From an uncultured Verrucomicrobia subdivision 3 bacterium (GTDB lineage Bacteria > Verrucomicrobiota > Verrucomicrobiia > Limisphaerales > UBA11358), in the NCBI GenBank assembly GCA_903911825.1, contig CAIWFB010000216.1:1317-65316 (forward strand): a stretch of DNA of 64,000 bases, read 5' to 3'. Positions 5,283 through 24,055 of this stretch are shown here, piece by piece (positions within the stretch are counted from its first letter, which is position 1; every line of letters begins with the position of its first letter). The position numbers and the translations under genes were made by a program. The notes beneath the pieces are model-generated. The model was given only the letters and a program-made list of their open reading frames with translations. It had not been told where the DNA came from and searched no databases.

Positions 5283-5335
5283 GCGTTGTTTTTACCGATG
5301 CCCCGACGGTCTCGGCCAGGGCTGCTTGCAGTATT

Positions 5336-7494: not shown

Positions 7495-8362
7495 GCATTA
7501 CCAAAGACATTAATTGTTTTCTGCTAAGCAGCTTGTCGCGCAAGCCGCTTCTCTTTTTGGGACTTAATATGAACTTGCCCCACAGGACAAACCATTCGAC
7601 AACATGACGCAGCAACAAAACCCCGCGACACAGGATCACGAATCGAACCTTGCCATGATTGCGCAGGAGCAGCCAACGGTTGCGATGGAAACGCACCACA
7701 CGCCGCGCAGTCGTTTGAGGGCTGCCAGATCCTCGATGGAAACATTTAAGACTCGTGTCCGTCTTAATGAGCCACCCGGCATCCAGCAGGCGCATGGAGA
7801 AATCCGTGTCTGCATCCAGAAAATCAAACGCCTCGTCAAACCCGCCGATTTGGGCGAACGCCTCCCGCCGAACCGCCATGCAGCAAGAATGAACCACGAA
7901 CCGTTTGCCAACAAACCAGCCACGTTTGGCACACCAACTCCCAACAGCCTGACCCAAAAGAAAATTCAGCAGCGTCGGCTCGGAATCGCCTGCCATCCGC
8001 GTTTGTCCTTCGCCGTTCACTTCGAAAAAACCAAGCGCGCCAAGTCGCGGTTCATTTTGAAAATGCCGCATGACTTGGGGAATCAAATCCATCAATGGAT
8101 ACGCATCACAATCCAGAAACAACACGACCTCTTCATCCAGCAGGCGCATTCCTACGTTGACACTACGGACATAGCCCAGGTTTTTTGGGTTCCGATGAAT
8201 GACAACCTTGTCACTTTCAGGAAATGTTTCTGGCGCATCCGACGCGTCATCCACCACCACGATTTTTGAGATGGAATCTCCGGACGAGTGCAACACCTCA
8301 CGGATGGCGCGCTGGGTCAAAGGCCACGACAGGTAATTGGTGATTAAGACAGAGACCGGCAT
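7478..8362 (-). CDS. Glycosyltransferase family 2
   Basis: N-terminal VSVLITNY…VVVDDASDAPE and LFLDCDAY (DxD) GT-A motifs. Confidence 0.8.
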   Translation of the reverse strand: MPVSVLITNYLSWPLTQRAIREVLHSSGDSISKIVVVDDASDAPETFPESDKVVIHRNPKNLGYVRSVNVGMRLLDEEVVLFLDCDAYPLMDLIPQVMRHFQNEPRLGALGFFEVNGEGQTRMAGDSEPTLLNFLLGQAVGSWCAKRGWFVGKRFVVHSCCMAVRREAFAQIGGFDEAFDFLDADTDFSMRLLDAGWLIKTDTSLKCFHRGSGSPQTTARRVVRFHRNRWLLLRNHGKVRFVILCRGVLLLRHVVEWFVLWGKFILSPKKRSGLRDKLLSRKQLMSLVMRDYEN

Positions 8363-8371
8363 CTTACAAAA

Positions 8372-9307
8372 TTAATTTAGTTTGGCTGGTTGGTAACCGG
8401 AGAGCAATGCCGGCCCTTTCAGCCGCCGCCAGGCGGCAACCGGCAAAGCAGCCAGCCAGAAACCTAAGGCAAAGGGAATACGCCAAGGGCGTTCGCGACT
8501 CCGCCGGTTTAAGACAGAGCTGCGGATGGCGGCGTATAGGAGGGGCAAACAACTATGCCACGAGCCAAAACCGATTAAGAAATACCAGTCGCCGATGCAG
8601 TGGTGAAAATACCAAAACTCTTTCTCCTGCCACCAATTGCGGGCACCACCACCGCGCACCAGCTTCGCACCAAGATGATAAATTTGGCACTTGGGACTGT
8701 AGAGAAATTTGTAGCCTGCCCGCACAAACCGCATGGCAAAATCAGTTTCTTCCCGGTGAGCACCCTTTTCATAATTCTCATCCATGCCGCCTAGTTCCAG
8801 AAAAACATTCCGCCGGATGCCAACATTGCCCGCCATCATAAAACTGGTCTCACGTTCTTTAGAAAAGGTTTTGGGGAAATAAAGCCAGCCGATTTCAGGG
8901 TCTAAGGCTTTTGGCGGCAGAACATCAACTGGTTTGGCATCACCTTCCATGACCTGCCCGGACACCGCTTTGGCACCGGTGCGCTGAAAGGTCTCCGCAT
9001 ACGCCGCCAGAAAATCCGGTTGCACCTGAATATCATCATCCAGAAATAACACCACTTCACCCGTGGCTGCCAGTGCGCCCACGTTACGTGCCATAGAGGC
9101 ATTGGGCTCTGCTTGATGGAGCCAACGGATTTTTCCCTGCTTGTTCCACTTTGTCAGTGCCTTGTGGGTCGCCTCATCCGGTGCCGCCGTCTGATCCACC
9201 ACAATGATTTCGTGCGCGGGATGCGATTGGTCCAGCAACATCTGGATGGTGTCACAAAGGATTTCCCCCCGTCCGAGAGTGGGAATGATGCAACTGATTT
9301 TCATCAA
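8372..9307 (-). CDS. Glycosyltransferase family 2
   Basis: ISCIIPTLGRGE…IIVVDQT…LFLDDD GT-A motifs. 311 aa. Confidence 0.8.
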   Translation of the reverse strand: MMKISCIIPTLGRGEILCDTIQMLLDQSHPAHEIIVVDQTAAPDEATHKALTKWNKQGKIRWLHQAEPNASMARNVGALAATGEVVLFLDDDIQVQPDFLAAYAETFQRTGAKAVSGQVMEGDAKPVDVLPPKALDPEIGWLYFPKTFSKERETSFMMAGNVGIRRNVFLELGGMDENYEKGAHREETDFAMRFVRAGYKFLYSPKCQIYHLGAKLVRGGGARNWWQEKEFWYFHHCIGDWYFLIGFGSWHSCLPLLYAAIRSSVLNRRSRERPWRIPFALGFWLAALPVAAWRRLKGPALLSGYQPAKLN

Positions 9308-10161
9308 TTCCTTATTTCTGGAAGAAATAGCACGTTTGTTGTTCCAATAATTTCAAGCAGTGACAAAGGATTCCGGCTGGCTGGATCAACCGTGGCATAG
9401 TTATACTTCTGCCTGAAAACATCCAGGTCGGCTATTGATACTCCCAGTTTGGCATATGCTTGACTTGCAACCTCACAAAGAATTTTCGGACGACTAGAAC
9501 ATTTGCAATTATCCAAATATCCCTCCAGCCCTTTCAAAACGGGTATTTCAAACCCCTCCACATCAATTTTAATCAAATCAACTCTTTGGAGATTATGTTT
9601 CGAAAAATAATCGCTTAGTCGAATGACCGGAACTTCAAATTGTTCATTGACATCTTTTGGTGCCATAAAGTTTGGAACCATCGTGTTCCAGCCGATATTC
9701 CCCCCCTTGCTAGTGCGAATCGCGGCAGTTCCGGGATTTTCTCCCAGAGCAACTTGGTTGTAAAAAAAATGATATTCGACATTGTTTTTCGCCACAGCCA
9801 TCAAGCGCTCATACAGCCAAGGAACTGGTTCAAAGGCATGCACCTGACCTTTGGCCCCAACAAGCCCCAGTGCCACCGTGCTAATGTATCCACAATTGGC
9901 TCCAACGTCTATGAAAGTATCACCAGGCTTCAATAAGCTTTCGAGGCAGAGACATATGTCCGGCTCATAGTCGCCATAATATATCTCACTCATCATTGAT
10001 CCTAAGTCGAGATTGTATGGAAAACACACCCCATGAACCATGATGATGCCTGAGTTGGGTGGACATGGCATTATGTGGCGACGCCACCACGAAATGGATT
10101 TCCGCCAAAATAATGTTGGGTTGTTTACAAGAACAATAACTGCTTTTTTAATTTTTCTCAT
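9304..10161 (-). CDS. FkbM-family SAM-dependent methyltransferase
   Basis: FIDVGANCGYIS (SAM-binding glycine loop), …VHAFEPVP… and IDVEGFE motifs. Visibly AT-rich. Confidence 0.7.
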   Translation of the reverse strand: MRKIKKAVIVLVNNPTLFWRKSISWWRRHIMPCPPNSGIIMVHGVCFPYNLDLGSMMSEIYYGDYEPDICLCLESLLKPGDTFIDVGANCGYISTVALGLVGAKGQVHAFEPVPWLYERLMAVAKNNVEYHFFYNQVALGENPGTAAIRTSKGGNIGWNTMVPNFMAPKDVNEQFEVPVIRLSDYFSKHNLQRVDLIKIDVEGFEIPVLKGLEGYLDNCKCSSRPKILCEVASQAYAKLGVSIADLDVFRQKYNYATVDPASRNPLSLLEIIGTTNVLFLPEIRN

Positions 10162-11359
10162 ATATGGTTATTTTTTCTTGGCACAAATGGCCTAAAAAAT
10201 ACTGGCGGCAGTTCTCCTGAAAACATTTTTTGCCGATTTCGCTCGCATTTTTGCCCAGCTGGCGGCGTAAGGCTTCATCGCCCAGGAGCCGGGTCAAAGC
10301 CTTGGCCAGCGCCTCGGCATCAGGGTTATCCACCACCTCGGCGACGTCCTGGTTTTCCCGCGCCCACTGCACGGCGGACGCATAGGCTGGGCCAAATATA
10401 AAGATGGGCAAACCTGTGAGTGTGTAATCGGCTAGTTTACTTTGGAAACTCGTGATCATCCAAATCTGATCCTCCGGCCGGAAACTCAACGGCAGGAACA
10501 GCACATCGGTATTTTTTCGAAACTCCTCCAACAACTGTCCATAAGGGATCGTCGGTTTTATGTGAACATTAGGCAAGCGCAGCCCCAGCCGCGCGACCGA
10601 CTTCTCATTCTGGTGCGAATAAATCAGGATTTGACCGCCCAGAGGTTCCAGTGCCGCCGCCGCCAAGCGTAATGCGTCCGCATAGCCATCGGTGATTGTT
10701 CCCGCAAAGCCCAGCGTAAAGCTCCGGCCCGGACGTGGCTCCGGCGGTTCCGGGTAAACCGGCGCGTCGGCGGCGCGACAAGGATATAAACAGGAACCGG
10801 CCACGCCGTATTGCTCCCGGTAGAAACTTTCCATCCAAGGAGAAATGCAAAGCCGGGAGACCGCCTGCCGGTAGACGACCTGAAACCGCCGTTCGGTCCA
10901 GAACTGCAACCGCGCGGGCAGGTTGCATGAGATTGGAGGGTGGTCATGCACAATCAAATGCAACGGCAGTTTCAACGCTTGCGCCGCCAGCGCCGCCGTG
11001 TGCCAGGACCAGCCATGAGCCACAGTCAACACCGCCTCCGGGCGAAAATGTTCTGCCCGGCGAATGATTTTCCCCACCATCAAACGTGTCGTGGCTTGCC
11101 GCCAAATGGAGCTGATGCCGGCAAAGCGGGTATGGGCCAGGCGGCGTGCTCCCAATGGCAGGTGAACATAGTTCACCCCGGGCAGACGGCGCTCTGGCTT
11201 TGACACTTCGGCCAATTCGCAAATCCAGAGTTTTTCCGCCGGATACGTTTGCAAATTGCGGAACAGCAGGGTGGAGCCGGCAACCGTGTGCTCAACCGGC
11301 ACATCACCGATATATAGCAGACGGGGAACCACGACAGGTTTAGTTACTACAGCGGCCAT
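10148..11359 (-). CDS. Hypothetical protein, possibly a divergent GT-B glycosyltransferase
   Basis: 403-aa ORF in the operon with two Rossmann-like halves. I can name no diagnostic motif, so only the CDS call is firm. Confidence 0.5.
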   Translation of the reverse strand: MAAVVTKPVVVPRLLYIGDVPVEHTVAGSTLLFRNLQTYPAEKLWICELAEVSKPERRLPGVNYVHLPLGARRLAHTRFAGISSIWRQATTRLMVGKIIRRAEHFRPEAVLTVAHGWSWHTAALAAQALKLPLHLIVHDHPPISCNLPARLQFWTERRFQVVYRQAVSRLCISPWMESFYREQYGVAGSCLYPCRAADAPVYPEPPEPRPGRSFTLGFAGTITDGYADALRLAAAALEPLGGQILIYSHQNEKSVARLGLRLPNVHIKPTIPYGQLLEEFRKNTDVLFLPLSFRPEDQIWMITSFQSKLADYTLTGLPIFIFGPAYASAVQWARENQDVAEVVDNPDAEALAKALTRLLGDEALRRQLGKNASEIGKKCFQENCRQYFLGHLCQEKITIYEKN

Positions 11360-12065
11360 CGTTATTTTTTGAAATCTCGCTTTGGGGTGCGCCGCATCGG
11401 CTTTCGCCTGTTGCCAAGTGTTTCGCTATGAAGGCCGACACGTCAAAAATCATTGATTCAATATCGGACAGCTTTTCATCCGGAAAATTCCACCATTGAA
11501 TCTTCAGCAACTCGTTGCGGGTTTTTTCATCAAAGCGATACCGCCTTACTTCAATAGGGTTGCCATAGGCGATGGCATAAGGAGGTATATTTTTAGAAAC
11601 CACACTACCAGCACCGATCACTGCCCCATCGCCGATGCTCACGCCATCTAAGATGGTGACGTTCATGCCAATGAACACGTCATTCCCGATGCTGATCGCA
11701 GCTTGCTCTGGCACTTTGTCGCGCTGGCTTAAGCTGAAAGCATTCTGCCGACGGGCTGAATAAAACATCGGAGCAGTGGACAGGCCATGCACCGGGTGAA
11801 CACCCCAGCCACACATCAGGTTTGGGCCAATGGAACAAAACCGGCCAATGGTCGTCAAATTAATGCGCCCCCCCCCGCTGATATAGGTATAAGCTCCGAT
11901 GGACGTATCGTTGAGGCTGGCAGGCTCATAAACTTTGGCTTTGGAACTGACGCAGCAATTTTTCTGGTTGAGCGAGGTCATGGCGCACAACTCCGGCATC
12001 AAATAGAACGCCACATGGCGAACCGCATATCTTAAAACCCGGGTAATTTGGGATGGCACAGCCAT
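11340..12065 (-). CDS. Hexapeptide-repeat acetyltransferase, Vat/CatB (xenobiotic acetyltransferase)-like
   Basis: [53 protein letters not shown]…IQWWNFPDEKL. The start is moved to Met38 of the ORF (12065) to clear the upstream gene. Confidence 0.8.
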   Translation of the reverse strand: MAVPSQITRVLRYAVRHVAFYLMPELCAMTSLNQKNCCVSSKAKVYEPASLNDTSIGAYTYISGGGRINLTTIGRFCSIGPNLMCGWGVHPVHGLSTAPMFYSARRQNAFSLSQRDKVPEQAAISIGNDVFIGMNVTILDGVSIGDGAVIGAGSVVSKNIPPYAIAYGNPIEVRRYRFDEKTRNELLKIQWWNFPDEKLSDIESMIFDVSAFIAKHLATGESRCGAPQSEISKNNDGRCSN

Positions 12066-12081
12066 ATTCACATAGAAGCAA

Positions 12082-12612
12082 TCAACCTTGAGGCCTGAAT
12101 CTGACCAGACGGGCGGGAATGCCAAACACAATCGCCTGCGCCGGAACATCCTTGGTAACAACGCTGCCAGCACCAATCACCGCCCCATCGCCAATCGTAA
12201 TGCCCGGCATAATCACAGCGTGAGAACCAATCCAAACATCTTGGCCAATGCATACTGGCTTTAACACGACCGTTTTAAACATGTCCGCTTTTTCATAGTC
12301 ATGGGTGACGGATGTGATGGTTGAGTGCGAAGCAATCATGGTGCGATTGCCAATCTGCACCCCGCCAGCACCCCAAACATGAACAAACGCGCCGATTACG
12401 CAATCATCCCCAATCTCAATCTTTTCAGGCTGCATGAAGCATAGTGGCAGGTGGAAAAAAGTGTTCTTTCCGCAACTTTTTAGTCTGGCACTCGTTCTGG
12501 CAATCTGGAATTGCCGCCAATATTCCTGAACGCGGTTGATAATGCTGGACAGTAACGGAGCTTGAACCGCCCCCCGACCCAGGCAGCGGACCATGTTTGT
12601 AATCGAAATCAC
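12082..12612 (-). CDS. Hexapeptide-repeat (LbH) O-acetyltransferase, WcaF/maltose-acetyltransferase-like
   Basis: [52 protein letters not shown]. Confidence 0.8.
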
Positions 12613-12669: not shown

Positions 12670-13932
12670 TCAACATGAGGCAAGGGTGCCGGTTAACCGG
12701 CTTTTTATTATTCCTCGGACCACCATGTATGTGACTAAAAGCAGCATTGGAATGGAGCAAAACCATCCGAATATGAGCACGCCTTTCACCTCGCCTAGAT
12801 TCAAATAGTTAAGAAGAATGATTTGCAGGGCAATCGTGAGGATTGGGGCCATCCACGCATGCCAGATCCAGCCGCGAGCGGTGGCCAGACTCCACACAAT
12901 CCCTGTAAAGCCGCCGAGGATGGAGCCGGCCACCATCCATGGCAGTTCCCGGGTCAACCCGGCATATTTAGCACCGAGCACCCAAAGAATTTCACGCGGG
13001 AACAGCACGCTGCAGGCAAACAGGCTGCCGGCAAAAACGGTATAGGCTGCCAATGACACCAGAAACAATCTCACCAGGCGGGCCAGCGTTTCACAGCGTG
13101 CATAGGTTGGAACCACCACCCCGTTCAGCACGCTGGCAATGACTGCAAATAACACGCTCAATCGCCCCAATGCCCCCAATTCCGCGACCTTCTCCACGTT
13201 GCCAAAAATGGAGATCAGCCAGATAGTGATCTGCCCCTGAAAGGCAAAAAAGAAAACGGTTAAAAACTGTTTGCGGATGAAGACCATCAGTTCCTTGCCC
13301 TGTCCGGCATCGCGGGGCGCGTCAAAGTCCAAAATCTCCGCCGCCCGCCGCCGCACCAGCACCGCCTGCAACGTGGCTCCGATGGTGGCCACCAGCACCG
13401 CCGCCAAGGCGTTGATGAATATCAACGCCAGCCCGCACAGGAGCGTGAGCCGGATCAGGGCGGCAACCAGTTCCAGTTTCTGCACGGCCAGATATTTTCC
13501 GTGCAGCCGCAATGGGGTGGCATACACGCTGGTATTGAATAGCCCCCACAACGTCATAATGATGACGGCAGTAAGCGAGAGCGCCTTGAGCCACGGCACC
13601 TCGTTTTGCCGGAATAAATACAGGGAAAAACCCACCCCAACCGGCACGGCAACCCAGGCCAGTTTGAAACGGATTTCCAGGACGGTGGACACCAACCGGC
13701 TCAATGCCCCGCGATCCCGCCACACGCGCCCACCCACGGCATTCAAGCCGGTGCCAATGCCTGAATCCGTCAGCATGCTAAGAATCGCCTGCAAGCTGGT
13801 GGCGATGGTGTAGGCGGCAAACTCGCGTTTATCCAGCACCCGGACGAGTAGAAACCCGCTCAAGGCCATAGTCAACTGCACCACGCCTTGCATGGCACCA
13901 AATTTTGCGAGCAGTTGTATTTTTTGCTTCAA
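12670..13932 (-). CDS. Polysaccharide flippase, MOP/Wzx-like
   Basis: 420 aa with about 12 TM helices. The start in the ORF track is TTG, and the first ATG is 36 nt downstream (13896). Assignment rests on architecture and context. Confidence 0.65.
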   Translation of the reverse strand: MKQKIQLLAKFGAMQGVVQLTMALSGFLLVRVLDKREFAAYTIATSLQAILSMLTDSGIGTGLNAVGGRVWRDRGALSRLVSTVLEIRFKLAWVAVPVGVGFSLYLFRQNEVPWLKALSLTAVIIMTLWGLFNTSVYATPLRLHGKYLAVQKLELVAALIRLTLLCGLALIFINALAAVLVATIGATLQAVLVRRRAAEILDFDAPRDAGQGKELMVFIRKQFLTVFFFAFQGQITIWLISIFGNVEKVAELGALGRLSVLFAVIASVLNGVVVPTYARCETLARLVRLFLVSLAAYTVFAGSLFACSVLFPREILWVLGAKYAGLTRELPWMVAGSILGGFTGIVWSLATARGWIWHAWMAPILTIALQIILLNYLNLGEVKGVLIFGWFCSIPMLLLVTYMVVRGIIKSRLTGTLASC

Positions 13933-13974
13933 ACAGTTTTAGGCAGGGGATTTCTATTTTCGAAAACACACTGT

Positions 13975-14043
13975 TCAACAGGCAGCCCAAATGAAGTCGG
14001 TAAAGGATTTTCCTGCCCGGCTGGGTTCGAGGATTAGGTCCAT
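13975..14043 (-). pseudogene. 22-codon remnant of a wzm 5' end
   Basis: It translates to MDLILEPSRAGKSFTDFIWAAC*, against the Wzm N-terminus MDLILEPGRAEKNYWRDLW. The 32 nt spanning the ATG and the junction to the array (about 14023-14054) match 15863-15894 at 30/32 positions. Confidence 0.65.
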
Positions 14044-14050
14044 GGTTTGG

Positions 14051-14246
14051 AAAGATGAAAAGCTAAAACTTGATGTAAAAAGCTGACAAACTGAAAAGCT
14101 AAAATGCTAAAATCTGACATGCGGACAAACTAAAAGGCTGAAAAGCTTACTTACTAACAAGCTGAAAAGCTAAAAAGCTAAAATGCTAAAATCTGACATG
14201 CTGAAACTCTAAAAACTGACATGCGGAAAAACTGAAAAGGGAAAAC
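14051..14246. repeat. Phased 8-bp repeat array D
   Basis: gctaaaat gctaaaat ctgacatg cggacaaa ctaaaagg ctgaaaag …, with occasional 7-bp units. Confidence 0.9.
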
Positions 14247-14295
14247 GTTCACCGCGGAGCTTTTTAGCAACAACCAAGCAACCAAGCACAAAGGG

Positions 14296-14598
14296 TCAGC
14301 CGATTCTTTTCTTCCGGTCACTCCAATATTCAGGGCGGCGAGAACCGTGGGCCACGGCCAGAATCCAAATGGTGTCATTCCAGATGAAATAAGGAACATA
14401 GTAGCGAAAAACCTTCAGGTTTACCTGCTGGTATCCATTGGGACGGAGCCGGGGAATTTCTGAATTGTGGCTGATCCATTGAATTGCTGCGCGAACCTCT
14501 TCCTTCAATCGAACACCCAATCCCGGCTCAGTTTCCTCGTAGTAAGCAATGGCTTCAGTTAATTCCTGCTCGGCCTCGAGAAGGATTTCTATCTTCAT
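14296..14598 (-). CDS. Type II toxin, RelE/ParE family
   Basis: 100 aa, MKIEILLEAEQELTEAIAYYEE…VPYFIWNDTIWILAVAHGSRRPEYW. 4-nt overlap with the upstream antitoxin gene. Confidence 0.75.
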   Translation of the reverse strand: MKIEILLEAEQELTEAIAYYEETEPGLGVRLKEEVRAAIQWISHNSEIPRLRPNGYQQVNLKVFRYYVPYFIWNDTIWILAVAHGSRRPEYWSDRKKRIG

Positions 14599-14831
14599 GC
14601 GGGAAAGCGCCGGTCCAGCCGGGCAAACACCTCATCAAAGCCGGCGGAACGGGCGCGGCCGGACTTAACCTCCGCCAGGCGCCGCCCGATTTCCGTTTCC
14701 CAGGCGGCCTCAACAGCGGGGGAAAAATCTTCGCTCTCATCCGATAAATCCAACAAAATACGCGCCAGTGTGAGCCGTTGATCCGACGGCAATTCCAAGG
14801 CATCTTTGGCGAGTTCAGAAATCGCTTTCAT
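14595..14831 (-). CDS. Antitoxin, putative addiction-module component
   Basis: MKAISELAKDALELPSDQRLTLARILLDLSDE…AWETEIGRRLAEVKSG. Start taken at the first ATG (Met13 of the ORF). Confidence 0.7.
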   Translation of the reverse strand: MKAISELAKDALELPSDQRLTLARILLDLSDESEDFSPAVEAAWETEIGRRLAEVKSGRARSAGFDEVFARLDRRFPA

Positions 14832-14870
14832 GCGTGGTAAATTACGCCGTGAAGGTGGATTGTCCAATAC

Positions 14871-15038
14871 AAATAAAAACTGAAAAGCTGAAATGCTGAC
14901 ACACTAAAAGGCGGACAAACTGAAAAACTAAAATGCTAAAATCTGACATACTGAAAGGCTGACAAACGGACAAACAAAAAGCTAAAAAGCTGAAATACTA
15001 AAATACTGAAATGCTAACAGGCTGAAAGGCTGACAAAT
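14871..15038. repeat. Phased 8-bp repeat array E
   Basis: ctgaaaag ctgaaatg ctgacaca ctaaaagg cggacaaa ctgaaaaa ctaaaatg …. Confidence 0.9.
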
Positions 15039-15064
15039 TTAGATAATTCCACTGTTTTAATTTT

Positions 15065-15883
15065 TTAAATGACGTCGGCGAAGGTTTTTTCCAGGCGGCG
15101 GAAATACCAGAGGCCACTCATACAGAGGACGAGCGAGACCAAAACGGAAAAGCTGACACTGGAAAGCTGAAATGGCGTTTGACCGCGCAGGAGGCACCAG
15201 CGGAAGCCATCAATGACGCCGACCATGGGGTTGAGGGAATAGAGGAGTTGCCATTTCGCGGGCACGACGTGGCTGCTAAATCCGACCGGTGAAACATAAA
15301 GCCCGAATTGCACGATGAAGGGGACGATATAGCGGAAGTCGCGGTATTTCACGTTGAGCGCACAAAGCCAGAGTCCGGCCCCAAAGGCGGCGGCAAACGC
15401 CAACAGCGTGAAGAGCGGTAGCGCCAGCAGCCGGAGGTCGGGGGCGAAGCCATACCAGAGCATCATCGCACCCATCAGGCCGAGGGTGATGAGAAAATCC
15501 ACGAGGCTGGTGATGACGGAACCGGCGGGGACGATGAGGCGCGGAAAATAGATCTTGGAGATGAGGTTGGCGTTGCCGATGAGGCTGTTGCTGGATTCGC
15601 TCAAGGCGGTGGCAAAGAATTGCCAAGGCAACATGGCGGACATGACGAGCAGCGCATAGGGCACATCAGCGGGGGCGGTCAGTTTAGCGATCTTACTGAA
15701 CACGATGGTGAAAACCACCATGGTCAGGAACGGACGGATGACGGCCCACGCGACGCCGATGACCGTTTGCTTGTAGCGCACGGAGATATCGCGCCACGCG
15801 AGGATGATGAACAGCTCGCGGTAGTGCCAGAGATCGCGCCAGTAATTTTTTTCGGCGCGGCCGGGTTCGAGGATGAGGTCCAT
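15065..15883 (-). CDS. wzm: ABC-2 type polysaccharide export permease (Wzm-like)
   Basis: YWRDLWHYRELFIILAWRDISVRYKQTVIGVAWAVIRPFLTMVVFTIVF and 6 TM helices. Start taken at MDLILEP (Met15). No partner ATPase gene is adjacent. Confidence 0.85.
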   Translation of the reverse strand: MDLILEPGRAEKNYWRDLWHYRELFIILAWRDISVRYKQTVIGVAWAVIRPFLTMVVFTIVFSKIAKLTAPADVPYALLVMSAMLPWQFFATALSESSNSLIGNANLISKIYFPRLIVPAGSVITSLVDFLITLGLMGAMMLWYGFAPDLRLLALPLFTLLAFAAAFGAGLWLCALNVKYRDFRYIVPFIVQFGLYVSPVGFSSHVVPAKWQLLYSLNPMVGVIDGFRWCLLRGQTPFQLSSVSFSVLVSLVLCMSGLWYFRRLEKTFADVI

Positions 15884-15894
15884 GGGTTGGAAAG

Positions 15895-16097
15895 GGGACA
15901 AACTGAAAAGCTGACTTACTAACAAGCTGAAAAGCTAAAAAGCTGAAACTCTAAAAATTACAAACGGACAAACGGACAAACAAAAAGCTGAAAAGCTGAA
16001 AAGCTAACAAACTAAAATGCTGAAAGGCTGACAAACTGACACACTAAAAAGCTGAAATACTGAAATGCTAAAATGCTAAAATCTGACATGCTGAAAG
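15895..16097. repeat. Phased 8-bp repeat array F
   Basis: It runs from just upstream of the wzm ATG to the stop codon of the four-helix-bundle gene. Confidence 0.9.
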
Positions 16098-16098
16098 T

Positions 16099-16464
16099 TC
16101 AGGCGCCGGCTTTGCGTAACTTGGAAACCATGGTGGTAAAGATGGCGATGAGTTCACTCGTTTCACGCAGGAGGTTTTCCATTGGTTCACCAGTGATGCC
16201 GCAATCGTCCCGCAACAATTCAAGCCATAATTGTGTTTCATCCGCTTCCTGAAGCAAGCCATCCAGCTTGGAACAAAATTCCGAATTGGAACGCGCCCGG
16301 GACGCCTCCCGAGCGTGGGCGGCCACTGAGGTTCCGGAACGCAGGAGTTGATGGCCGAGCACTTTGACCTCGGCGCGAGCCGGGGGAAGTTTCACATATA
16401 GCTGGATAGTCGCCGAGGCATAACGTTTGGTCCGGTCACGCAATTCATCGGATAGGCGGCTCAT
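16099..16464 (-). CDS. Four-helix-bundle protein (23S rRNA intervening-sequence protein family)
   Basis: 121 aa, …YASATIQLYVKLP…LGHQLLRSGTSVAAHAREASRARSNSEFCSKL…ADETQLWLELL. Confidence 0.8.
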   Translation of the reverse strand: MSRLSDELRDRTKRYASATIQLYVKLPPARAEVKVLGHQLLRSGTSVAAHAREASRARSNSEFCSKLDGLLQEADETQLWLELLRDDCGITGEPMENLLRETSELIAIFTTMVSKLRKAGA

Positions 16465-16467
16465 ATT

Positions 16468-16648
16468 CTAAAAAACTGAAAAGCTAAAATGCTGACATGC
16501 TGACAAACCAAAATGCTGAAAAACTAAAAAACTGAAATGCTAATAAGCTGACACACTAAAAAGCTGACAAACTGACATCCTAAAAAGCTGAAAGGCTAAA
16601 ATACTGAAACCTGAAAGGCTGAAAGCTGAGACCGGAGGCCTGAAAGGA
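16468..16648. repeat. Phased 8-bp repeat array G
   Basis: It starts 3 nt upstream of the four-helix-bundle ATG and ends in G-rich variant units (…gctgagaccggaggcctgaaagg). Confidence 0.9.
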
Positions 16649-16743
16649 GCAGGCGCCGCCCTTGGTCGTTTCGCGAGGTTTTTCGCAAAAGATTCCCGGC
16701 ACCAGCACCGCATGTTTTTGCCAAGGCATGAGCCTTAGGGGAG

Positions 16744-17092
16744 GTCGGAGACCTGTGACCTGACAAGCTGACATACTAACAAGCTAAAAAGCTAAAAAGC
16801 TAACATGCTGACAAACTAAAACACTAACAAGCTGACATACTGACATACTGACATACTGACATGCTGACATGCTGACATGCTAAAATGCTAAAAAGCTGAC
16901 ACGCTAAAACACTAACAAGCTGACATGCTGACATGCTAAAAAGCTGACACGCTGACAAACTAAAACCGGAGGTCGGAGATCAAAAATCTAAGACCTGAGA
17001 CCTGACATACTGACATACTGACACGCTAAAAAGATGAAACGCTAACAGACTGACACGCTGAAACACTGACATACTGAGACCTGAACTGACTG
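16744..17092. repeat. Phased 8-bp repeat array H (longest)
   Basis: About 40 units, including a near-perfect run of six (a/g)ctgacat units at 16831-16878. Confidence 0.9.
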
Positions 17093-17121
17093 GCGGCGCG
17101 ACAACGACGGCTTACCAAATT

Positions 17122-17676
17122 TCATTGGCTGCCTAACAATTTCAACAAAAAGGGTAGGACGCGACGACCATTCTTTTCCCAGCTCTGCAGCAGCTTGACG
17201 CGCGCGAGGGTGTGGGTGCGGGCGGCGCCGGTCAGCGGCTGGGCGTGGGCGCTGATGCGCTCCAGGCGGCTGGGGCTGTCGCTCAAATGTTCGGTCAACT
17301 GCTGGCGCAAAAAGCTGCCGGCGAGATGGCGCAGTTCGGCGACGGCCTCGTAGTGGGTGCGGCGCGTGGCGGTGGCGACTTCGCGGACGGCACCGAGTTC
17401 GCGCAGATATTTCAGGCCCTGACTGGCGGAGCCTTTGCTCAGGTGCAGTCGCGCGGCGAGGTCGTCCAAGGTCAACGGCTGGTGCGAAATGAACAGGAGC
17501 CCGTAAAGCTCGGCGTAGGAACGGGGCTGGCCGACAGCGCGGGAAAATTGGACGAAGAGTTGGATGACCTCGGTTTCCACCGGAGTCAACCCGGAAGCCG
17601 GGTGGTTCGTTTGAGCACGGGCAACCATGAGTTTAGCGTTCGCCTGGGAATGTGCGCTGGCCACAGGACGGAGCAT
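17122..17676 (-). CDS. Winged-helix transcriptional regulator, GbsR/MarR-like
   Basis: …VIQLFVQFSRAVGQPRSYAELYGLLFISHQPLTLDDLAARLHLSKGSASQGLKYLRELGAVREV…RRTHYEA. AGGAG lies 8 nt upstream of the ATG. Confidence 0.65.
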   Translation of the reverse strand: MLRPVASAHSQANAKLMVARAQTNHPASGLTPVETEVIQLFVQFSRAVGQPRSYAELYGLLFISHQPLTLDDLAARLHLSKGSASQGLKYLRELGAVREVATATRRTHYEAVAELRHLAGSFLRQQLTEHLSDSPSRLERISAHAQPLTGAARTHTLARVKLLQSWEKNGRRVLPFLLKLLGSQ

Positions 17677-17702
17677 AGTGAGCTCCTGGAATTATTCAAA
17701 TA

Positions 17703-17872
17703 AAAATGAACAAACTGACATACTGAAAGATGACATACTGAAAAGCTAAAAAGCTGACAGGCTGAAATCTGAAAGCGGAGACCTGAAACTGGAAAGCTGA
17801 AAGCTGACATACTGAAAAGATGACATACTGAAAGATGACAAACTAAGATCTGAAATCGGAGATCTGAGAAAA
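17703..17872. repeat. Phased 8-bp repeat array I (in a divergent intergenic region)
   Basis: Same polarity as all other arrays. Contains cggagacc and cggagatc variant units. Confidence 0.85.
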
Positions 17873-17934
17873 GGGAGGGCGGCGGGTTTGGCGGTTGCTT
17901 AGCGGGGGGGACTTCCGTTTTAATGACGTGAACT

Positions 17935-19161
17935 TTGAAAATTCTGCTGCTCAATCAGGCGTTTTATCCCGACGTGGTCTCCACGGCGCAGCATCTCAGC
18001 GAGCTGGCGGTGGCACTGGCGGAGCGCGGGCATACGGTGACGGTGGTGACGGGGCGGCGCGCTTACGATGCGCCGGAGCAAACGTTCGCGGCGCACGAAG
18101 TCTGGCGCGGCATCCAGATCCACCGGGTGGCGGCGACCCGGCTGGGGAAGGGAGCCAAATGGCGGCGGGCGGTGGATTTTGGCAGTTTCGTGCTGGCAAG
18201 CGGGTGGCGGTTGCTGACCTTACCGCGGCACGACGTGGTGGTGGCGCTCACCACGCCGCCGTTGATCTCGTTCATCGGCGCGTGGCGGGCCCGGTGGTGG
18301 GGCGCGGCGTTCGGTTATTGGGTGATGGATATGAATCCGGACGAAGCGATCGCGGCAGGCTGGTTACGGCGGGATTCACTCATGGCCAAGGTGCTGGAAC
18401 GGATGTCGCGCTTCAGTTTCCGGCAAGCCAACCGGATCATCGCGCTCGACCGTTTCATGCACGACCGCATCGTGGCCAAAGGCATCGCCCCGGAAAAAAT
18501 CCTGACGCTGGCACCGTGGTCGCAAGATCAGGACGTGCACTTCGACGCGAGCGGGCGGGAACGGTTCCGCGAGCAGCACGGGCTGACGGGCAAATATGTG
18601 GTGATGTATTCCGGCAACCACAGCCCGGTGCATCCGCTGGACACGTTGCTGGCGGCGGCGGACCGGTTGCAAAGCGATGAGTCCATCGTGTTCTGTTTTG
18701 TGGGCGGCGGGAGCGAATTCAAACGCGTGCAAGCTAGCGTGGCCAGCGGTCAGCGACCGAACGTGCGGTGCCTGCCGTATCAGCCGCTGGCGCAACTGGC
18801 GGCTTCGCTCTCGGCGGCGGACGCGCACGTGGTGGTGCTGGGCGAGGCGATGCTGGGCCTGGTGCATCCGTGCAAAATCTACAACATGCTGGCGGTGGGC
18901 GCCCCGGTGATCTATGTCGGGCCGCAACCGAGCCACGTGAGCGAAATTTTGGCGCAACTGGGCGCGGAGTCTCCGTGGTGCGCTGCGCCGCACGGCGCGG
19001 GGGACACTTTGGCGGAGCAGATCCAGCAACTCCGCCAACGGCCCGCGCAACGGCAGGGAGCGGCGGCCGTGACGGCGACCTTTGCGAAAGCGGCGTTATT
19101 GCCCCGACTCGTGGCGGCGTTGGAAACCATGGCGACACCGCAACCACCGCGCCGCGAATGA
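17935..19161 (+). CDS. Glycosyltransferase, GT4, WcaI/WbuB-like
   Basis: MKILLLNQAFYPDVVSTAQHLSELAVALAERGHTVTVVTG… N-terminus. 408 aa. Confidence 0.8.
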   Translation: MKILLLNQAFYPDVVSTAQHLSELAVALAERGHTVTVVTGRRAYDAPEQTFAAHEVWRGIQIHRVAATRLGKGAKWRRAVDFGSFVLASGWRLLTLPRHDVVVALTTPPLISFIGAWRARWWGAAFGYWVMDMNPDEAIAAGWLRRDSLMAKVLERMSRFSFRQANRIIALDRFMHDRIVAKGIAPEKILTLAPWSQDQDVHFDASGRERFREQHGLTGKYVVMYSGNHSPVHPLDTLLAAADRLQSDESIVFCFVGGGSEFKRVQASVASGQRPNVRCLPYQPLAQLAASLSAADAHVVVLGEAMLGLVHPCKIYNMLAVGAPVIYVGPQPSHVSEILAQLGAESPWCAAPHGAGDTLAEQIQQLRQRPAQRQGAAAVTATFAKAALLPRLVAALETMATPQPPRRE

Positions 19162-20774
19162 CCACGTCGCCGACCAACATTGCCACCCACGCCGGGCGTT
19201 CTCAACGCAGCACCTGGCTCTGGCTCGCCCTACCCTTGGGCTGGCTGTGGTGGCACTTGATCCGGCACCTGCAAGTGGAATGGACGCTCAATCCCCAATA
19301 CGGCTACGGCTGGGCGGTGCCGTTTTTGTGCGCGTATCTGATCAGCAGAAAACTGGGCTCAGCCAACGCCAGCGAGGCGACCGGCCCAGCAGCGGCCACG
19401 GGCGAAAATAAAATGGCGTGGGCAGGTCTGGTCGGGCTGGCGATGCTCTATGCGCCGACGCGGCTGATCGAGGAAGCGAATCCGGAATGGCGACTGATCA
19501 GTTGGGCGTTGGCGGGCGAAACGGTGGGCCTCACCGGGCTAGTGATCTATCTCTGGCTGGGCGGGCGGTGGCTCCGGCGATTGGCGTTTCCGGTGGCTTA
19601 TTTTTTAGTGGCGGTGCCGTGGCCGACGTGGCTGGAGGTGACGGTGATCCAAAGTTTGACGCGGGCGGACGCGGCGCTGACGGTGGAATTGTTGAACGGA
19701 CTGGGGATTCCGGCAATCCCCCATGGCAACGTGATCGAAGTGGCGACGGGCGAGGTGGGCATTGACGAAGCGTGCAGCGGCATCCGCTCATTTCAGGCGA
19801 CGCTGATGATCGCGTTGTTTCTCGGCGAATTGTATCAGCTCGGGCGCGGGCGCCGACTGGGACTGGTGCTGGCAGGCTTCACGCTCTCGTTCGGGTTCAA
19901 TCTGGCGCGGATGACGGTGCTAGTCTGGGTGGCGGCGCGCGAGGGCACCGGGGCGATCGCGCAATGGCATGACCCGACGGGGGTGACGATTTTGCTCGCG
20001 TGTTTTTTCACGTTGTGGGGACTGGGCAACTGGCTGGCGCGCCGCCAACCCGTCGCCGTGGCGCCCGCGCGCCCTGAGTCGGGCAACGGGTGGCCGGAGG
20101 TGAACGGGCGGTGCAACCCGTGGCTGATCGGTTTGACAGGCTGGCTGATCGTCGCGGAAAGTGCGGTGGAAGGTTGGTATCGCTGGCACGAACAACGGTT
20201 GCCGACGGCGGCGCAGTGGACGGTGACGTGGCCGACGAATGAACCGTCGTTTCAGCTCACGGCCCTGCCCGAACGCACGCGCCAAATGCTGCGCTATGAC
20301 GACGGGCAACGGGTCGGGTGGACGGCGGACGGCCGCAACTGGCAGGCAATTTTTCTGCATTGGCAACCGGGCCGCACCGCCGTGCACCTGGTGCAAAACC
20401 ACACACCGGAAGTGTGTATGACCGCCGCCGGACAGCAGGTGGCCACCCTCGCCCCGCGAACCTGGCTGACGGCGGCGGGACTGGAGTTGCCGTTCACCCT
20501 TTACGCCCTCGACCACACCGAGCCGCCGGTCTATATCTTCTACTGCCTATGGGATGACCGCACGAGCGCGCAAGGCCGAGACACCCTCTACCTGAATTAT
20601 GGCACCCGCTTGGGGCCGGTCGTGCAAGGATTGCGAAATCCCGGCCAACGCTCGTTGGAAATCGCGCTGCGCGGCGACCTAGACGCTGGCCAAGCGCAAG
20701 CGATCGTGGAACAACAGTTGCAACGCCTGATCCGCCGCGAGCCGACCAGTCCGGTTCCAAGATCGGCACCCTGA
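19158..20774 (+). CDS. Exosortase fused to a C-terminal EpsI-family domain
   Basis: The start is at Met131 of the ORF (ATGA overlap with the GT stop). It has …NPQYGYGWAVPFL…, the catalytic-type Cys in IDEACSGIRSF, FNLARMTVLVW (Arg), and a C-terminal EpsI-like segment …LVQNHTPEVCMTAAGQ…. Confidence 0.8.
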   Translation: MTTSPTNIATHAGRSQRSTWLWLALPLGWLWWHLIRHLQVEWTLNPQYGYGWAVPFLCAYLISRKLGSANASEATGPAAATGENKMAWAGLVGLAMLYAPTRLIEEANPEWRLISWALAGETVGLTGLVIYLWLGGRWLRRLAFPVAYFLVAVPWPTWLEVTVIQSLTRADAALTVELLNGLGIPAIPHGNVIEVATGEVGIDEACSGIRSFQATLMIALFLGELYQLGRGRRLGLVLAGFTLSFGFNLARMTVLVWVAAREGTGAIAQWHDPTGVTILLACFFTLWGLGNWLARRQPVAVAPARPESGNGWPEVNGRCNPWLIGLTGWLIVAESAVEGWYRWHEQRLPTAAQWTVTWPTNEPSFQLTALPERTRQMLRYDDGQRVGWTADGRNWQAIFLHWQPGRTAVHLVQNHTPEVCMTAAGQQVATLAPRTWLTAAGLELPFTLYALDHTEPPVYIFYCLWDDRTSAQGRDTLYLNYGTRLGPVVQGLRNPGQRSLEIALRGDLDAGQAQAIVEQQLQRLIRREPTSPVPRSAP

Positions 20775-20779
20775 GATGT

Positions 20780-23700
20780 TCAGGCCAGCAACTCCTGAAT
20801 CTCGGCCCAATTCAGCGACGACGCGAACTCCTCCTCCCCGCCGAGCGTGGCTTGGATGACGTCGCGTTTCCGGTTCTGCAGCAGCAGAATTTTTTCCTCC
20901 ACGGTATCGCGCGTGATGAGTTTGTAGCTCGTCACCACCCGATTCTGGCCGATGCGATGGGCGCGATCCGTCGCCTGATCTTCCACGGCGGGATTCCACC
21001 ACGGATCAAAATGGATGACGGTGTCTGCGCCAGTGAGATTGAGACCGGTGCCGCCCGCTTTGAGGCTGATGAGGAACACGGGAATGGTCGGCGTGTTCTG
21101 AAATTTCTCCACCACGGCGGCGCGATTGGTCGTGGAGCCGTCGAGATAACAGAATTCAATATTTTCCTCGGCCAACCGTTCTTTCAGCAGCGTGAGCATG
21201 GAAACAAACTGGCTGAACACCAGCACACGATGGCCGCCATCAATGACTTCCTCGAGCAGTTCGCCGAAGAGATCGAGCTTGCCGGAAGCATTGGCAGGCT
21301 TGACGTTTTCCAATTTCAGCAACCGCAAATCGCAGCACACTTGGCGTAACCGGAGCAACGCACTCAAGACCACCATGCGGCTCTTGGCCAACCCATCCGC
21401 GCCTACGGCGGCGAGAATTTCGTTGCGGCTGGCCTCGATGACTTGCTGGTAAACGGTCCGTTGATCCGGGGTCAATTCGCAGAACGAAACCTGCTCGAGC
21501 TTTGCGGGCAAATCTTTGGCTACATCGCGCTTGTGGCGGCGTAGCATGAACGGACGCAACCGCCGCGCTAGCCGTGACTGGGCTTCGGCATTTTTATCTT
21601 TGGCGATGGGCTGCTCGTAACGCTCGCGGAAATCTTTCGCCGCACCGAGATAACCGGGCATGAGAAAATCGAAGATGGACCAGAGATCCAAAACGGAGTT
21701 TTCCAGCGGCGTGCCCGTGAGCACGAGGCGATGCTTGGACTTCACCGCCTTCACCGCTTGCGCGTTCTGCGTCTGGCGATTCTTGATGTGCTGGGCCTCG
21801 TCCAGTACGGTGGTATCAAATTCAAGCTCGCGATATTTTTCCGCGTCGCGACGAAGGAGGGCGTAACTGGTCACCACGACATCGCAGTTTTTGATCTCGG
21901 CAAACAATGCGTGCCGGTCCGGTCCGTGCAGCGCCAGCACTTTTAATTCTGGCGTGAATTTTTTTGCCTCCGCCACCCAGTTGAAGACCAGACTCGTCGG
22001 GCAAACGATCAAATGCGGCTGGGTAGCCGCCAACGCGCGTTGGCTCGGATCCGCTTTTTGGTTCTGGGAATCCGTTGCAGCCTCCTCACGTCGGCGCCTA
22101 CACGCTTGGAAAAACGCCAGCGTCTGCAGCGTTTTTCCCAACCCCATTTCATCGGCGAGAATGCCGCCGAAGCCGTTCGTCCGCAAAAATTGCAGCCAGC
22201 CCACGCCGTGTTTTTGATAAGGTCGGAGCACGTTTTCCAGTTCGCCGAGCGGCGGACATTCCAGTATCGCCTCGCCGGTTTGCTGGGCGGCACGGTCGCG
22301 CCAAGCGGAAGGTGCGGCGACTTGCCAATTGCCGTGCTGACGCAGCGTGGCTTCGAGAAAACCGGCCTGCGCGTTGCCGATGCGGTAGCCGTCGGCGTGT
22401 TGTTGCGGCGCGCAATCGAGCAGCACTTCCTGTAATTCTTCGACGGCACCGGAATCAATCACGACCATTTTGCCATTCTTCAAGCGCTTGTGATTCTGGC
22501 CGGAAAGCAGCAGGCGCTGGATGTCGGCGGTGGCAAATTTCTCACCGCCATCCGAGGCAAAAACCACGCCCAGATCAAACCACTGCACGCCGGACGACGT
22601 GATCTGAAACTGCGGTTCGATCCGTTCGATATTTTTGAGCGTGCGATTTTCCAACTGCTCGTCCAGCGTCACATTCCACTCGCGTTGCAGCTTGGGAAAG
22701 TCGCGGGCGAGAAAATTCAGCACGGCATTCTGGCCGGTCAGTTGCAGTTTACCTTCAGCATCCGGCGCGGAAAATCCCTGTCGCACCAAGCGACCGAGTG
22801 CGTTCTGTTCGGCAGCAACATCGCGGGTGGAATAGCGCGTCGGCACTTCAGGATCGGGGAGCCACACGGCTTCGTCCGCCGCCGTCACGCCCACGGTCAT
22901 GATGCGCGGGCCGTAGGCGCATTGGAGGCGACCGCGCAATTGGGTCAGCCCGCCTTTGAGTTCCAAGAGGAAGCGCGGCGACTGCGGTTCCAAGGTGAAA
23001 TCTTCCAGTTTGAAATTGGCTTCGAGTCCGCCGGCGGCGAGCAGCGCGGGCCAAGACTGACTCAAAAATTGCGGCACTTGCGAGCGCGTCACCCGCACCG
23101 GCGTTTGGAAAATATTTTTCAGCACCGGCGACAACGCGAGCGGTTGCAGAGAATTATTGCGCCAGACCCAATCGCCGATCAGCGCCAGCGACGTCGGTTT
23201 GTCCCGCAGCGTCACCACGATTTCGCCATTGGTTTCCAACGTGGCGCGCAATGGCAGAGTCAGTGGCGTGGTCGTCACTTTGACGGCGGTGGCTTTGCCC
23301 AGCGTGAGATGCGGATGCTCGATGAGCAGCGGGAGCAGCGCGGCAAACTCTTGGGTTTCGAGTTGGAGAATAGCCGGCGTCTCGCCCGCCGTGAGCCGTT
23401 CCAAGGCATCCAGCACCGCATTGTCTGGCGCCGAAAAGGCGAACGGGCGGCCTTTGGGCAAGGCGTTCAGCGGACAACGGCCGCCGCCCCAGCGGGCCTC
23501 TAACACGAGCAGCATTTTGCCGCGCGCGGCGGCTTGCTCGAAATTCGGGGGCAGGATGAGAAATAATTCCGCCGGTTCGCCGCCGGGCGCACGGAGCAGG
23601 TCGGGAGTTTTTTTAACCACCGGCTTAGCGGTGGGCGCGGCTTTTTCACTGACGGCGGGCGCGGGAGATTTTTGCGCGTTCAGCCAATGCAAACCCACCG

Positions 23701-23953: not shown

Positions 23954-24055
23954 GACGGCAGTATGCCGACGCGCAGCGCGAATGAGAATTACGAATCGCG
24001 CCGAACATTTTCACGGTGCTGAATTCAACTTTCCGTTATAATCTTCGGTTCCGGC

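Follow-up and report, generated by a model that had tools for sequence, protein, structure and literature searches.

This work concerns tandem arrays of short repeats, and the small genes that lie between them, in a 64,000-nucleotide stretch of DNA (hereafter the window) from an uncultured Verrucomicrobia subdivision 3 (Pedosphaera/Limisphaerales-like) bacterium. The window corresponds to positions 1,317 to 65,316 of contig CAIWFB010000216.1 and has a GC content of 0.56. Among the genes bracketed by arrays is a member of the four-helix-bundle protein family 23S_rRNA_IVP (also S23p or TIGR02436; below, IVP), which is known from intervening sequences (IVS) of 23S rRNA genes. A preliminary description of the locus, made from the sequence alone, likened it to a cassette array whose repeat arrays act as, or mark, recombination joints. 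More interesting than the cassette analogy is the connection, reported here, of short tandem-repeat arrays with IVS-type four-helix-bundle elements.

Genes and octamer arrays of the locus

A polysaccharide operon occupies the minus strand of the window from 17676 down to 173. According to Pfam, the genes at 173-20774 include those of glycosyltransferases, acyltransferases, an FkbM methyltransferase, and hexapeptide transferases. The minus-strand gene order given in the preliminary description agrees with our map of open reading frames (ORFs) and with the Pfam matches. The operon begins with a resident gene of a MarR/ArsR-type winged-helix regulator (17122-17676, Pfam MarR_2). It is followed on the same strand by a short unique stub (16648-16759), the IVP gene (16099-16464), the wzm gene of an ABC-2 permease of a polysaccharide exporter (15065-15883, Pfam ABC2_membrane and NCBIfam), a toxin-antitoxin (TA) pair (14296-14831), a wzm remnant (13975-14054), and a membrane protein gene (12670-13932). 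With moderate confidence we interpret the segment at 13.9-17.9 kb as the head of a resident wzm-type polysaccharide operon that was colonised by small selfish genes and octamer arrays.

The GC content at third codon positions (GC3) is 0.78 in wzm and 0.77 in the MarR gene, versus 0.53-0.62 in the ParE, antitoxin, and IVP genes (0.59 in the last). Therefore we treat the IVP gene and the TA pair as foreign and the wzm and MarR genes as core. GC content by codon position failed to separate real from spurious ORFs when it was used as a gene caller. The IVP gene, an inserted selfish gene, matches Pfam PF05635 (1.3e-12) and TIGR02436 (4.4e-18), and arrays begin 3-5 nt from its start and stop codons. 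The TA pair is inserted cargo with the organization of a type II system, i.e., a small antitoxin gene (14595-14831, Unstab_antitox, 4.5e-9) overlaps by 4 nt (14595-14598) a downstream toxin gene of the ParE/RelE fold (14296-14598, ParE_toxin, 8.4e-9). It is flanked on each side by ~45-55 nt of unique DNA and has the same context in every assembly.

The arrays that separate these genes are real. Their unit is the degenerate octamer CTRAMAWR (e.g., CTGAAAAG, CTGACATG, CTAAAATG), with heptamer variants, such as CTGAGAC and CGGAGAT, at some array edges. A pattern of four such units has 29 matches in the window and none in 100 shuffled sequences. The tandem 7-8-nt units are confined to intergenic DNA, where they occupy spacers right up to the ORF boundaries and often abut start codons. 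The window has eight arrays, every one of them in its first 18 kb; the remaining 46 kb are free of them. All eight are co-oriented, being A-rich on the plus strand and T-rich on the coding strand.

The divergent spacer between the MarR-like and glycosyltransferase genes holds octamers and heptamers at 17715-17857. The large array between the MarR stop codon and the stub consists of two halves (16760-16967 and 17002-17073) with a heptamer-rich spacer between them. Further along the operon lie the length-polymorphic array G (16468-16647), array F (15903-16098, directly upstream of the intact wzm), array E (14880-15037, between wzm and the TA module), and array D (14063-14239, between the TA module and the wzm remnant). 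Two more arrays of the same family and orientation are found between two glycosyltransferase genes of the operon (2386-2545) and at the window edge (5-122).

We considered whether the arrays could be obvious promoters or terminators and rejected this, as sites resembling either are fewer in 13800-18000 than in shuffled sequences. An Rfam search at E<=1 returned two chance-level eukaryotic matches and nothing else; in particular, 13800-18000 has no rRNA match. No intergenic inverted repeats or dyads were found in 13900-17950, and the single inverted repeat detected there lies inside wzm. The arrays resemble each other at 60-75% in any 8-nt register. Arrays D and F share an exact block of 31 nt (42 nt with one mismatch), a length that was reached by one of 200 unit-order shuffles. 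In gapped alignments compared with unit-shuffled controls, only the pairs D-F, B-I (by the longest common block), and E-G stand out.

Remnants at array borders, strains, and related operons

The preliminary description counted the IVP gene, the TA pair, and wzm as accessory cargo. This holds for the first two, which have low GC3 and are inserted. The wzm gene is a resident operon gene: Wzm homologues number in the thousands (the best have 76-85% identity), and its GC3 is core-like. In a Wzm/Wzt exporter the permease gene is paired with an adjacent wzt. The wzt gene adjoins wzm or is near it in three related loci (L216, L217, L219, see below) and is absent at the window locus; the sole Walker A/LSGG motifs of an ABC ATPase in the window are near 55349-55649.

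The remnant at 13975-14054 (minus strand) is a wzm pseudogene, whose ORF at 13975-14043 translates to MDLILEPSRAGKSFTDFIWAAC*. It had been described as a copy of the Wzm N-terminus, with 30 identities in 32 nt (14023-14054 vs 15863-15894). We confirmed this match and extended it to 41 of 47 nt (14008-14054 vs 15848-15894). The extended match constitutes the 5' part of the pseudogene, includes 11 nt upstream of the ATG, and was equalled by none of 1000 dinucleotide shuffles (z=19). It is the sole non-array repeat in this part of the window. The 11 upstream nucleotides are common to both wzm copies, yet they are not conserved in the orthologous loci; therefore the two copies are paralogues within the lineage. 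The block of 31 nt shared by arrays D and F is upstream of both copies. Hence the duplication extended into the array, and the window holds two copies of the array-wzm junction.

Past codon 12 the remnant continues in frame across an A-run into a stretch that resembles the last wzm codons (~13989-14012). Here CCTTTACCGACTTCATTT matches CCTTCGCCGACGTCATTT at 15 of 18 positions, or at 19 of 23 with the last four A's of the run included, and the match falls exactly at the wzm 3' end. Since the 3' match has p ~0.06 by itself, we take the remnant to be probably, though not certainly, an internally deleted second wzm copy.

A second remnant had been proposed at the border of the stub, namely, a 3' fragment of the IVP gene. 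Its similarity is at chance level (z=2.2, with 45 of 1000 shuffles as good), and we rejected this candidate. The stub (minus strand) is instead homologous to native DNA of relatives. Within it are a hairpin that resembles a terminator (16697-16710) and the conserved motif GCGAAACGACCAAGGGCGGC, and it matches a region of L099 and L219 at 38 of 44 positions. The L219 counterpart overlaps the 3' end and stop codon of an opposite-strand hexapeptide-transferase gene, with the PPLVV codons common to both. In L180 a related motif is found downstream of a MarR homologue. The stub is thus probably what remains of the 3' end of a hexapeptide-transferase gene on the opposite strand, together with intergenic DNA, and it is now parted from the MarR gene by a 325-nt array.

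About ten independent assemblies hold the locus at ~100% identity and with identical gene content. Exact-protein look-ups for Wzm, MarR, IVP, and ParE returned the same locus only. The strains differ by whole-unit indels inside arrays. In variant L091 the large array is longer by 8 nt (one unit) near 16897, and in variants L091 and L092 array G is longer by 112 nt (14 units) near 16625. The spacing between the MarR and IVP genes is longer in four assemblies, for two of which (L091 and L092) the DNA was aligned. Because near-identical strains differ by whole units, the arrays are hypervariable, fast-evolving minisatellites. Several short-read metagenome contigs of this organism (L003, L004, L214, L215, L092) end inside arrays. 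Arrays fragment assemblies in this way, so their number and length in metagenome-assembled genomes (MAGs) may be under-represented. The practical consequence is that short-read assemblies break at these arrays.

Such variation is what one would expect if the arrays were neutral slippage-prone minisatellites in permissive spacers, sharing their location with selfish genes and playing no role in their movement, so that the link to IVP would be co-occurrence only. Under this explanation both would build up where spacer length is under relaxed selection, as in the variable accessory parts of polysaccharide loci. Array length alone varies between strains, promoter- and terminator-like sites are not enriched, Rfam has no match, and array-to-array similarity is mostly at the unit-shuffled level, all of which agrees with neutrality. 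The common D-F block, which adjoins the duplicated wzm, does not. Taken with the evidence on IVP genes given below, this makes the neutral explanation rather unlikely in our judgement.

Relatives of the locus were located by anchoring on the GT4 glycosyltransferase gene (17935-19161, plus strand, Pfam), which forms a conserved pair with an exosortase gene (19158-20774). Its orthologues, with 55-76% identity, are confined to MAGs of Verrucomicrobia subdivision 3. In the closest relatives from the genome collection, synteny is limited to the glycosyltransferase-exosortase pair; therefore a direct comparison with an empty site is impossible there. A second comparison was anchored on Wzm orthologues (80-85% identity) and included three loci. 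In L217 the epimerase, wzm, and wzt genes are compactly arranged, and there are no 7-8-nt arrays in 16.8 kb. In L216 an IVP gene with arrays on both sides lies upstream of wzm, and the gap between wzm and wzt contains an A-rich arm, a 90-nt relic of the IVP 3' end (79% identity), and a T-rich arm. This upstream IVP gene is disrupted by a ~170-nt insert resembling a miniature inverted-repeat transposable element (7305-7480), with terminal inverted repeats GAGAGCGTGTTTCAAAACT ... AGTTTTAAAACACGCTCT. In L219 wzm and wzt are 4.8 kb apart; the interval holds two small ORFs, which flank two epimerase genes, and then a VapBC pair and an IVP gene. Arrays with units of several types occupy all but one of the L219 junctions, none being detected between wzm and orf73.

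Thus the inserted small genes (IVP, VapBC, ParE/antitoxin, and small ORFs) differ among L216, L219, and the window, nearly all of their borders carry arrays (in the window, the cassettes adjoin arrays at every junction), and the uninvaded L217 has no arrays. At this distance the comparison tends to favour the preliminary description; the strains are alike in gene content. The arrays do mark insertion joints; we infer that they might also be the active recombination sites.

Other classes of 7-8-nt arrays occur in L219 and in L099 (1-360), with units AGTCCCGT/GGGACTAC, GCGCCTC, and CCTCCGA. In L219 they are found at 295-386, 5279-5754, 9224-9317, and 10520-10623, and the small ORF and the VapBC pair lie between direct AGTCCCGT arrays of ~12 copies on each side. 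In the relative L018 (8220-8375) heptamer (GGAGATC) and octamer (CATTTCAG) arrays are apparently situated within the exosortase reading frame, which may be either an in-frame loop insertion or a split gene.

IVP elements with tandem-repeat arms

IVP genes of 70-80% identity occur in eight other contigs, in unrelated surroundings. A tblastn search revealed such genes touching arrays in L117, L123, L155, L160, L165, L181, and L206, and more distant ones in L009 and L013. In most of these contigs the unit consists of an A-rich array, an IVP ORF, and a complementary T-rich array, with a few nucleotides between them. The flanks of the IVP genes of L009, L123, L155, L160, L181, and L165 are complementary. 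The flanking arrays of the L165 element pair to form a long stem, whose loop contains the ORF (z=-4.3). Arm pairs without an ORF, and an arm pair with an IVP 3' relic alone, also exist. These observations show that in the relatives the arrays are arms of IVP elements and persist after the decay of the ORF. The island in the window is an atypical, one-armed state.

A metagenome scan with the four-unit pattern gave more than 120 contigs among the matches listed, at least ~50 of which combine Verrucomicrobia-like GC content with arrays of at least five units. The multi-array contigs L196 and L169 repeat the design of the window, i.e., TA genes separated by co-oriented arrays. The genes between their arrays are MazE-like, PIN, YafQ-like, HicB-like, and DUF6932, and the neighbours include epimerase and UDP-glucose dehydrogenase genes. 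Beside arrays, the most frequent Pfam family is IVP (4 in 150 array-adjacent ORFs), which is not among the families listed for 150 control ORFs. In several contigs a GC-rich block of 60-80 nt recurs beside arrays, e.g., GTAGGGCAGTGCGTCCCGCCTGCC or CAGCGGCGCGGCGGGACGCCGCCGCCCTAC (L169 2715-2780, 3468-3546, and 3806-3887; L196 1921-2002, 2096-2161, and 3556-3637; L216 6975-7000). This block may represent another family of dispersed repeats that accompanies the spacers.

Array orientation shows no bias relative to neighbouring long ORFs in 82 array-gene pairs of the metagenome sample (25/22 upstream and 16/19 downstream), which argues against a general strand-specific RNA function. This lack of bias, like the variety of gene kinds that adjoin arrays, housekeeping genes included, is in keeping with neutral minisatellites. 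It also bears on the suggestion that the arrays are selected cis-acting spacers, which would set the expression of individual cistrons and insulate the operon from inserted selfish genes. Such spacers could take the form of U-rich, unstructured sites where ribosomal protein S1 or some other RNA-binding protein lands, of Rho-loading or insulator tracts, or, when paired, of RNase III stems. The arrays reach 5-20 nt from start codons, replacing recognisable Shine-Dalgarno regions of IVP and wzm, and the sense RNA of IVP with its flanking arrays F and G shows less structure than shuffled sequences. Moreover, arrays are T-rich on the coding strand in all three multi-array TA islands, and roles in translation or transcript stability have been proposed for TAACTGA (PMC4679880) and for short tandemly repeated repetitive (STRR) sequences (PMC2670836). 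Against such a role, no orientation preference is seen and co-existing strains differ by 14 units; the compact orthologous operon of L217 presumably works array-free. We therefore find a selected spacer function quite unlikely.

The association of IVP genes with tandem repeats extends beyond Verrucomicrobia. Plasmid homologues of IVP from Cyanobacteria, Chloroflexota, and Spirochaetota (L221-L232) are single-gene insertions between co-directional genes, often within defence or restriction-modification operons. Short tandem repeats are present in the flanks of all 10 plasmid IVP genes compared. In six of the 10, two of which are homologous Nostoc loci, flank complementarity exceeds that of all 500 shuffles. 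The units are species-specific: TAATTCG/AATTACG in Nostoc, AAATCCC/ACGATTT in Planktothrix, and TTTTAGA/TCTAAAA in Gloeocapsa. Flanking repeats are located, for example, at 19939-19971 and 20332-20364 in L227 and at 19916-19975 and 20348-20388 in L228. Over 40 kb of a Nostoc plasmid, the two arrays that flank the IVP gene are the only ones with a 7-nt unit and at least four copies. The plasmid heptamers resemble classical STRR repeats (PMC2670836), and repeats of the STRR type may be arms of IVS-like elements. We found no papers linking such short tandem repeats to four-helix-bundle genes, and a literature search found no published Verrucomicrobial octamer repeats; the coverage of the literature was incomplete, so the novelty is unproven. 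The Nostoc plasmid L227 also has an IS630 transposase gene between inverted tandem octamers (11410-11442 and 12911-12982; CTCCCCTG versus GAGCAGGG and CCCCTCTG), again tandem-repeat arms around a mobile gene.

These patterns weigh against neutral minisatellites. Complementary arrays lie within a few nucleotides of IVP genes in at least nine independent contexts, IVP genes are bounded likewise in other phyla by different repeat units, and the 40 kb of the Nostoc plasmid have no other such arrays. In addition, multi-array islands are co-oriented, with 8 of 8 arrays in the window (~p=0.008) and likewise in L196 and L169.

The rest of the window is array-free apart from the arrays at 5-122 and 2386-2545. 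The gene at 12670-13932 (minus strand), the first of the downstream glycosyltransferase/acyltransferase block, was previously labelled wzx. This family assignment is unsupported, as the gene has no family matches in Pfam or NCBIfam. Its ~9-11 hydrophobic segments (by hydropathy) indicate a polytopic membrane protein and nothing more specific. Adjacent hexapeptide-transferase genes share 39 nt at 85% identity (11598-11636 vs 12157-12195) and are paralogues. A block of acyltransferase, GT2, and FkbM genes at 6349-10161 has GC3 of 0.42-0.58 versus 0.64-0.80 in the flanking genes, which is typical of a horizontally exchanged serotype-specific segment; it contains no arrays. The genes at 20780-28159 bear helicase domains (precomputed domain table). 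The region at 28386-63019 is an array-free flagellar and envelope region, in which four ORFs match flagellin/FlgL models and one or two match LpxD. A summary-level NCBIfam screen of the 28-64 kb genes for a recombinase gave mostly flagellin models.

Mechanism and comparison with known systems

We think that the arrays may well be arms and relics of IVS-like IVP elements, with slippage as the mode of their evolution and a possible role as portable homology; we put this reading about midway between doubt and certainty. Dispersed co-oriented arrays with 60-75% similarity could serve as homology for RecA-type or slippage-type recombination and thereby bring about the insertion, duplication, and deletion of genes. 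In the window, a circular or tandem array-wzm-array-TA segment might have crossed over with an array or with the 5' end of the resident wzm. A single crossover would give the order array F, wzm, array E, TA, array D, wzm remnant. The redundant downstream copy of wzm would then have been deleted between two GAAAAA runs. No dedicated recombinase would be involved, and the cassette-like appearance would be a by-product of element arms and general recombination.

Several observations weigh against this reading. In the metagenome sample only ~1/10 of arrays touches an IVP gene, and arrays also adjoin housekeeping genes, e.g., those of TsaD, guanylate kinase, and AIR carboxylase; arrays may spread independently of IVP. 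Complementary flanks that form a stem, as in an IVS, are found in the relatives and in plasmids of other phyla, but in the window both arrays flanking IVP are T-rich on the sense strand, there is no canonical stem, and the fold of the IVP region is weaker than that of shuffled sequences (z=+2.2). Besides the D-F block, array-to-array similarity barely exceeds the unit-shuffled expectation, and the alignments are ambiguous. No cassette gain or loss is seen among the ~ten near-identical strain assemblies, and the 3' part of the wzm remnant, taken by itself, is a weak match, as noted above. A point against the preliminary description is that the only breakpoint that can be placed in unique sequence, the internal deletion in the wzm remnant, falls on an A-run of coding sequence and not on an array. 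The causal direction is also ambiguous: the arrays may arrive with insertions, be their targets, or grow afterwards.

The cassette analogy itself holds in part for the outcome and not for the mechanism. Chromosomal integrons have arrays rich in TA cassettes, and their attributes are the recombinase IntI, the attI site, and attC hairpins. As in integron cassette arrays, the units of the window are co-oriented, repeat-bounded single genes or TA pairs, the cargo includes a TA module, and the content differs between related genomes. These features would fit arrays that serve as attachment sites of a dedicated, unlinked site-specific recombinase, which would cut out and insert cassettes of one gene each. 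The preliminary description had already stated that neither an integrase nor an attC-like dyad is visible, and we agree: Pfam annotation reveals no integrase or transposase among the genes at 173-20774, the locus has no adjacent intI tyrosine recombinase with attI, and 13900-17950 lacks a dyad, a foldable attC inverted repeat, or a conserved core site. Unlike attC hairpins, the joints are direct tandem repeats, which vary in sequence and length even from strain to strain. The strains all carry the same cassettes, and the array-bounded wzm and stub are resident DNA. Given that the annotated region holds no recombinase, that dyads are absent, that the joints lack conservation, and that resident genes are bracketed as well, a dedicated integron-like recombination system is unlikely, and attachment sites of an unlinked recombinase are extremely improbable.

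The closest known counterpart of the IVP elements is the IVS of 23S rRNA genes in Coxiella and Leptospira (PMC4990558). The protein belongs to the same family (PF05635/TIGR02436), and the ORF lies in the loop of a stem formed by complementary flanks, as in the relatives of the window. Both are regarded as selfish, with an unexplained mechanism of mobility. In Coxiella, tandem heptamers (GACAGAT) in variable copy number occur just upstream of the S23p ORF (PMC4990558). Unlike the 23S rRNA IVS, which occupies helix 25 or 45 and is excised by RNase III, the window element lies between protein-coding genes of an operon. Its arms are degenerate tandem arrays (40-330 nt in these elements) instead of a unique inverted repeat of ~28 bp, they are co-oriented and stemless in the window, and many arrays have no ORF at all.

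STRR units include CCCCAGT, TTGGTCA, and CAACAGT. Another intergenic direct-repeat unit is TAACTGA (PMC4679880). Like the arrays studied here, STRR and TAACTGA repeats are intergenic tandem units of 7-8 nt that often abut start codons, are lineage-specific, reach tens of copies, and have no explained function (PMC2670836; PMC4679880). The unit CTRAMAWR, mixed with heptamers such as CTGAGAC and CGGAGAT, equals none of these units, and the arrays here differ also in being clustered in one part of the window. A further parallel is provided by contingency loci, such as those with Haemophilus heptamers (PMC12721329), where short tandem repeats are intergenic or in 5' untranslated regions at surface-polysaccharide or adhesin loci and vary in copy number between closely related cells. 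In the window, however, the repeats sit between cistrons and not in a promoter spacer or reading frame, their units are not identical but degenerate, and no phase-variable switch can be inferred.

A broader reading, which is tentative and on balance doubtful, is that IVP/S23p genes with complementary tandem-repeat arms make up a single, widely distributed class of mobile hairpin elements that lack a recombinase, embracing the classical 23S rRNA IVS, the cyanobacterial STRR heptamers, and the Verrucomicrobial octamer arrays. In that case the pentameric IVP protein would recognise the repeated units, and leftover arrays would make neighbouring genes exchangeable cassettes. If so, an integron-like outcome would be reached without an integrase, for TA modules and here for a wzm copy. 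The predictions are that the IVP protein binds the repeat, e.g., (CUUUUCAG)n or (CUGAAAAG)n, that RNase III processes paired arms, and that recombinant joints between arrays exist.

Three puzzles of about three decades' standing are concerned, namely, the function of the IVS four-helix-bundle protein, the origin of the 23S rRNA IVS, and the meaning of STRR-type repeats. The finding of an ORF with complementary tandem-repeat arms inserted between genes suggests that these puzzles belong together. It would also explain why TA modules and other small selfish genes are interleaved singly in the surface-polysaccharide operons of abundant soil and freshwater Verrucomicrobia.

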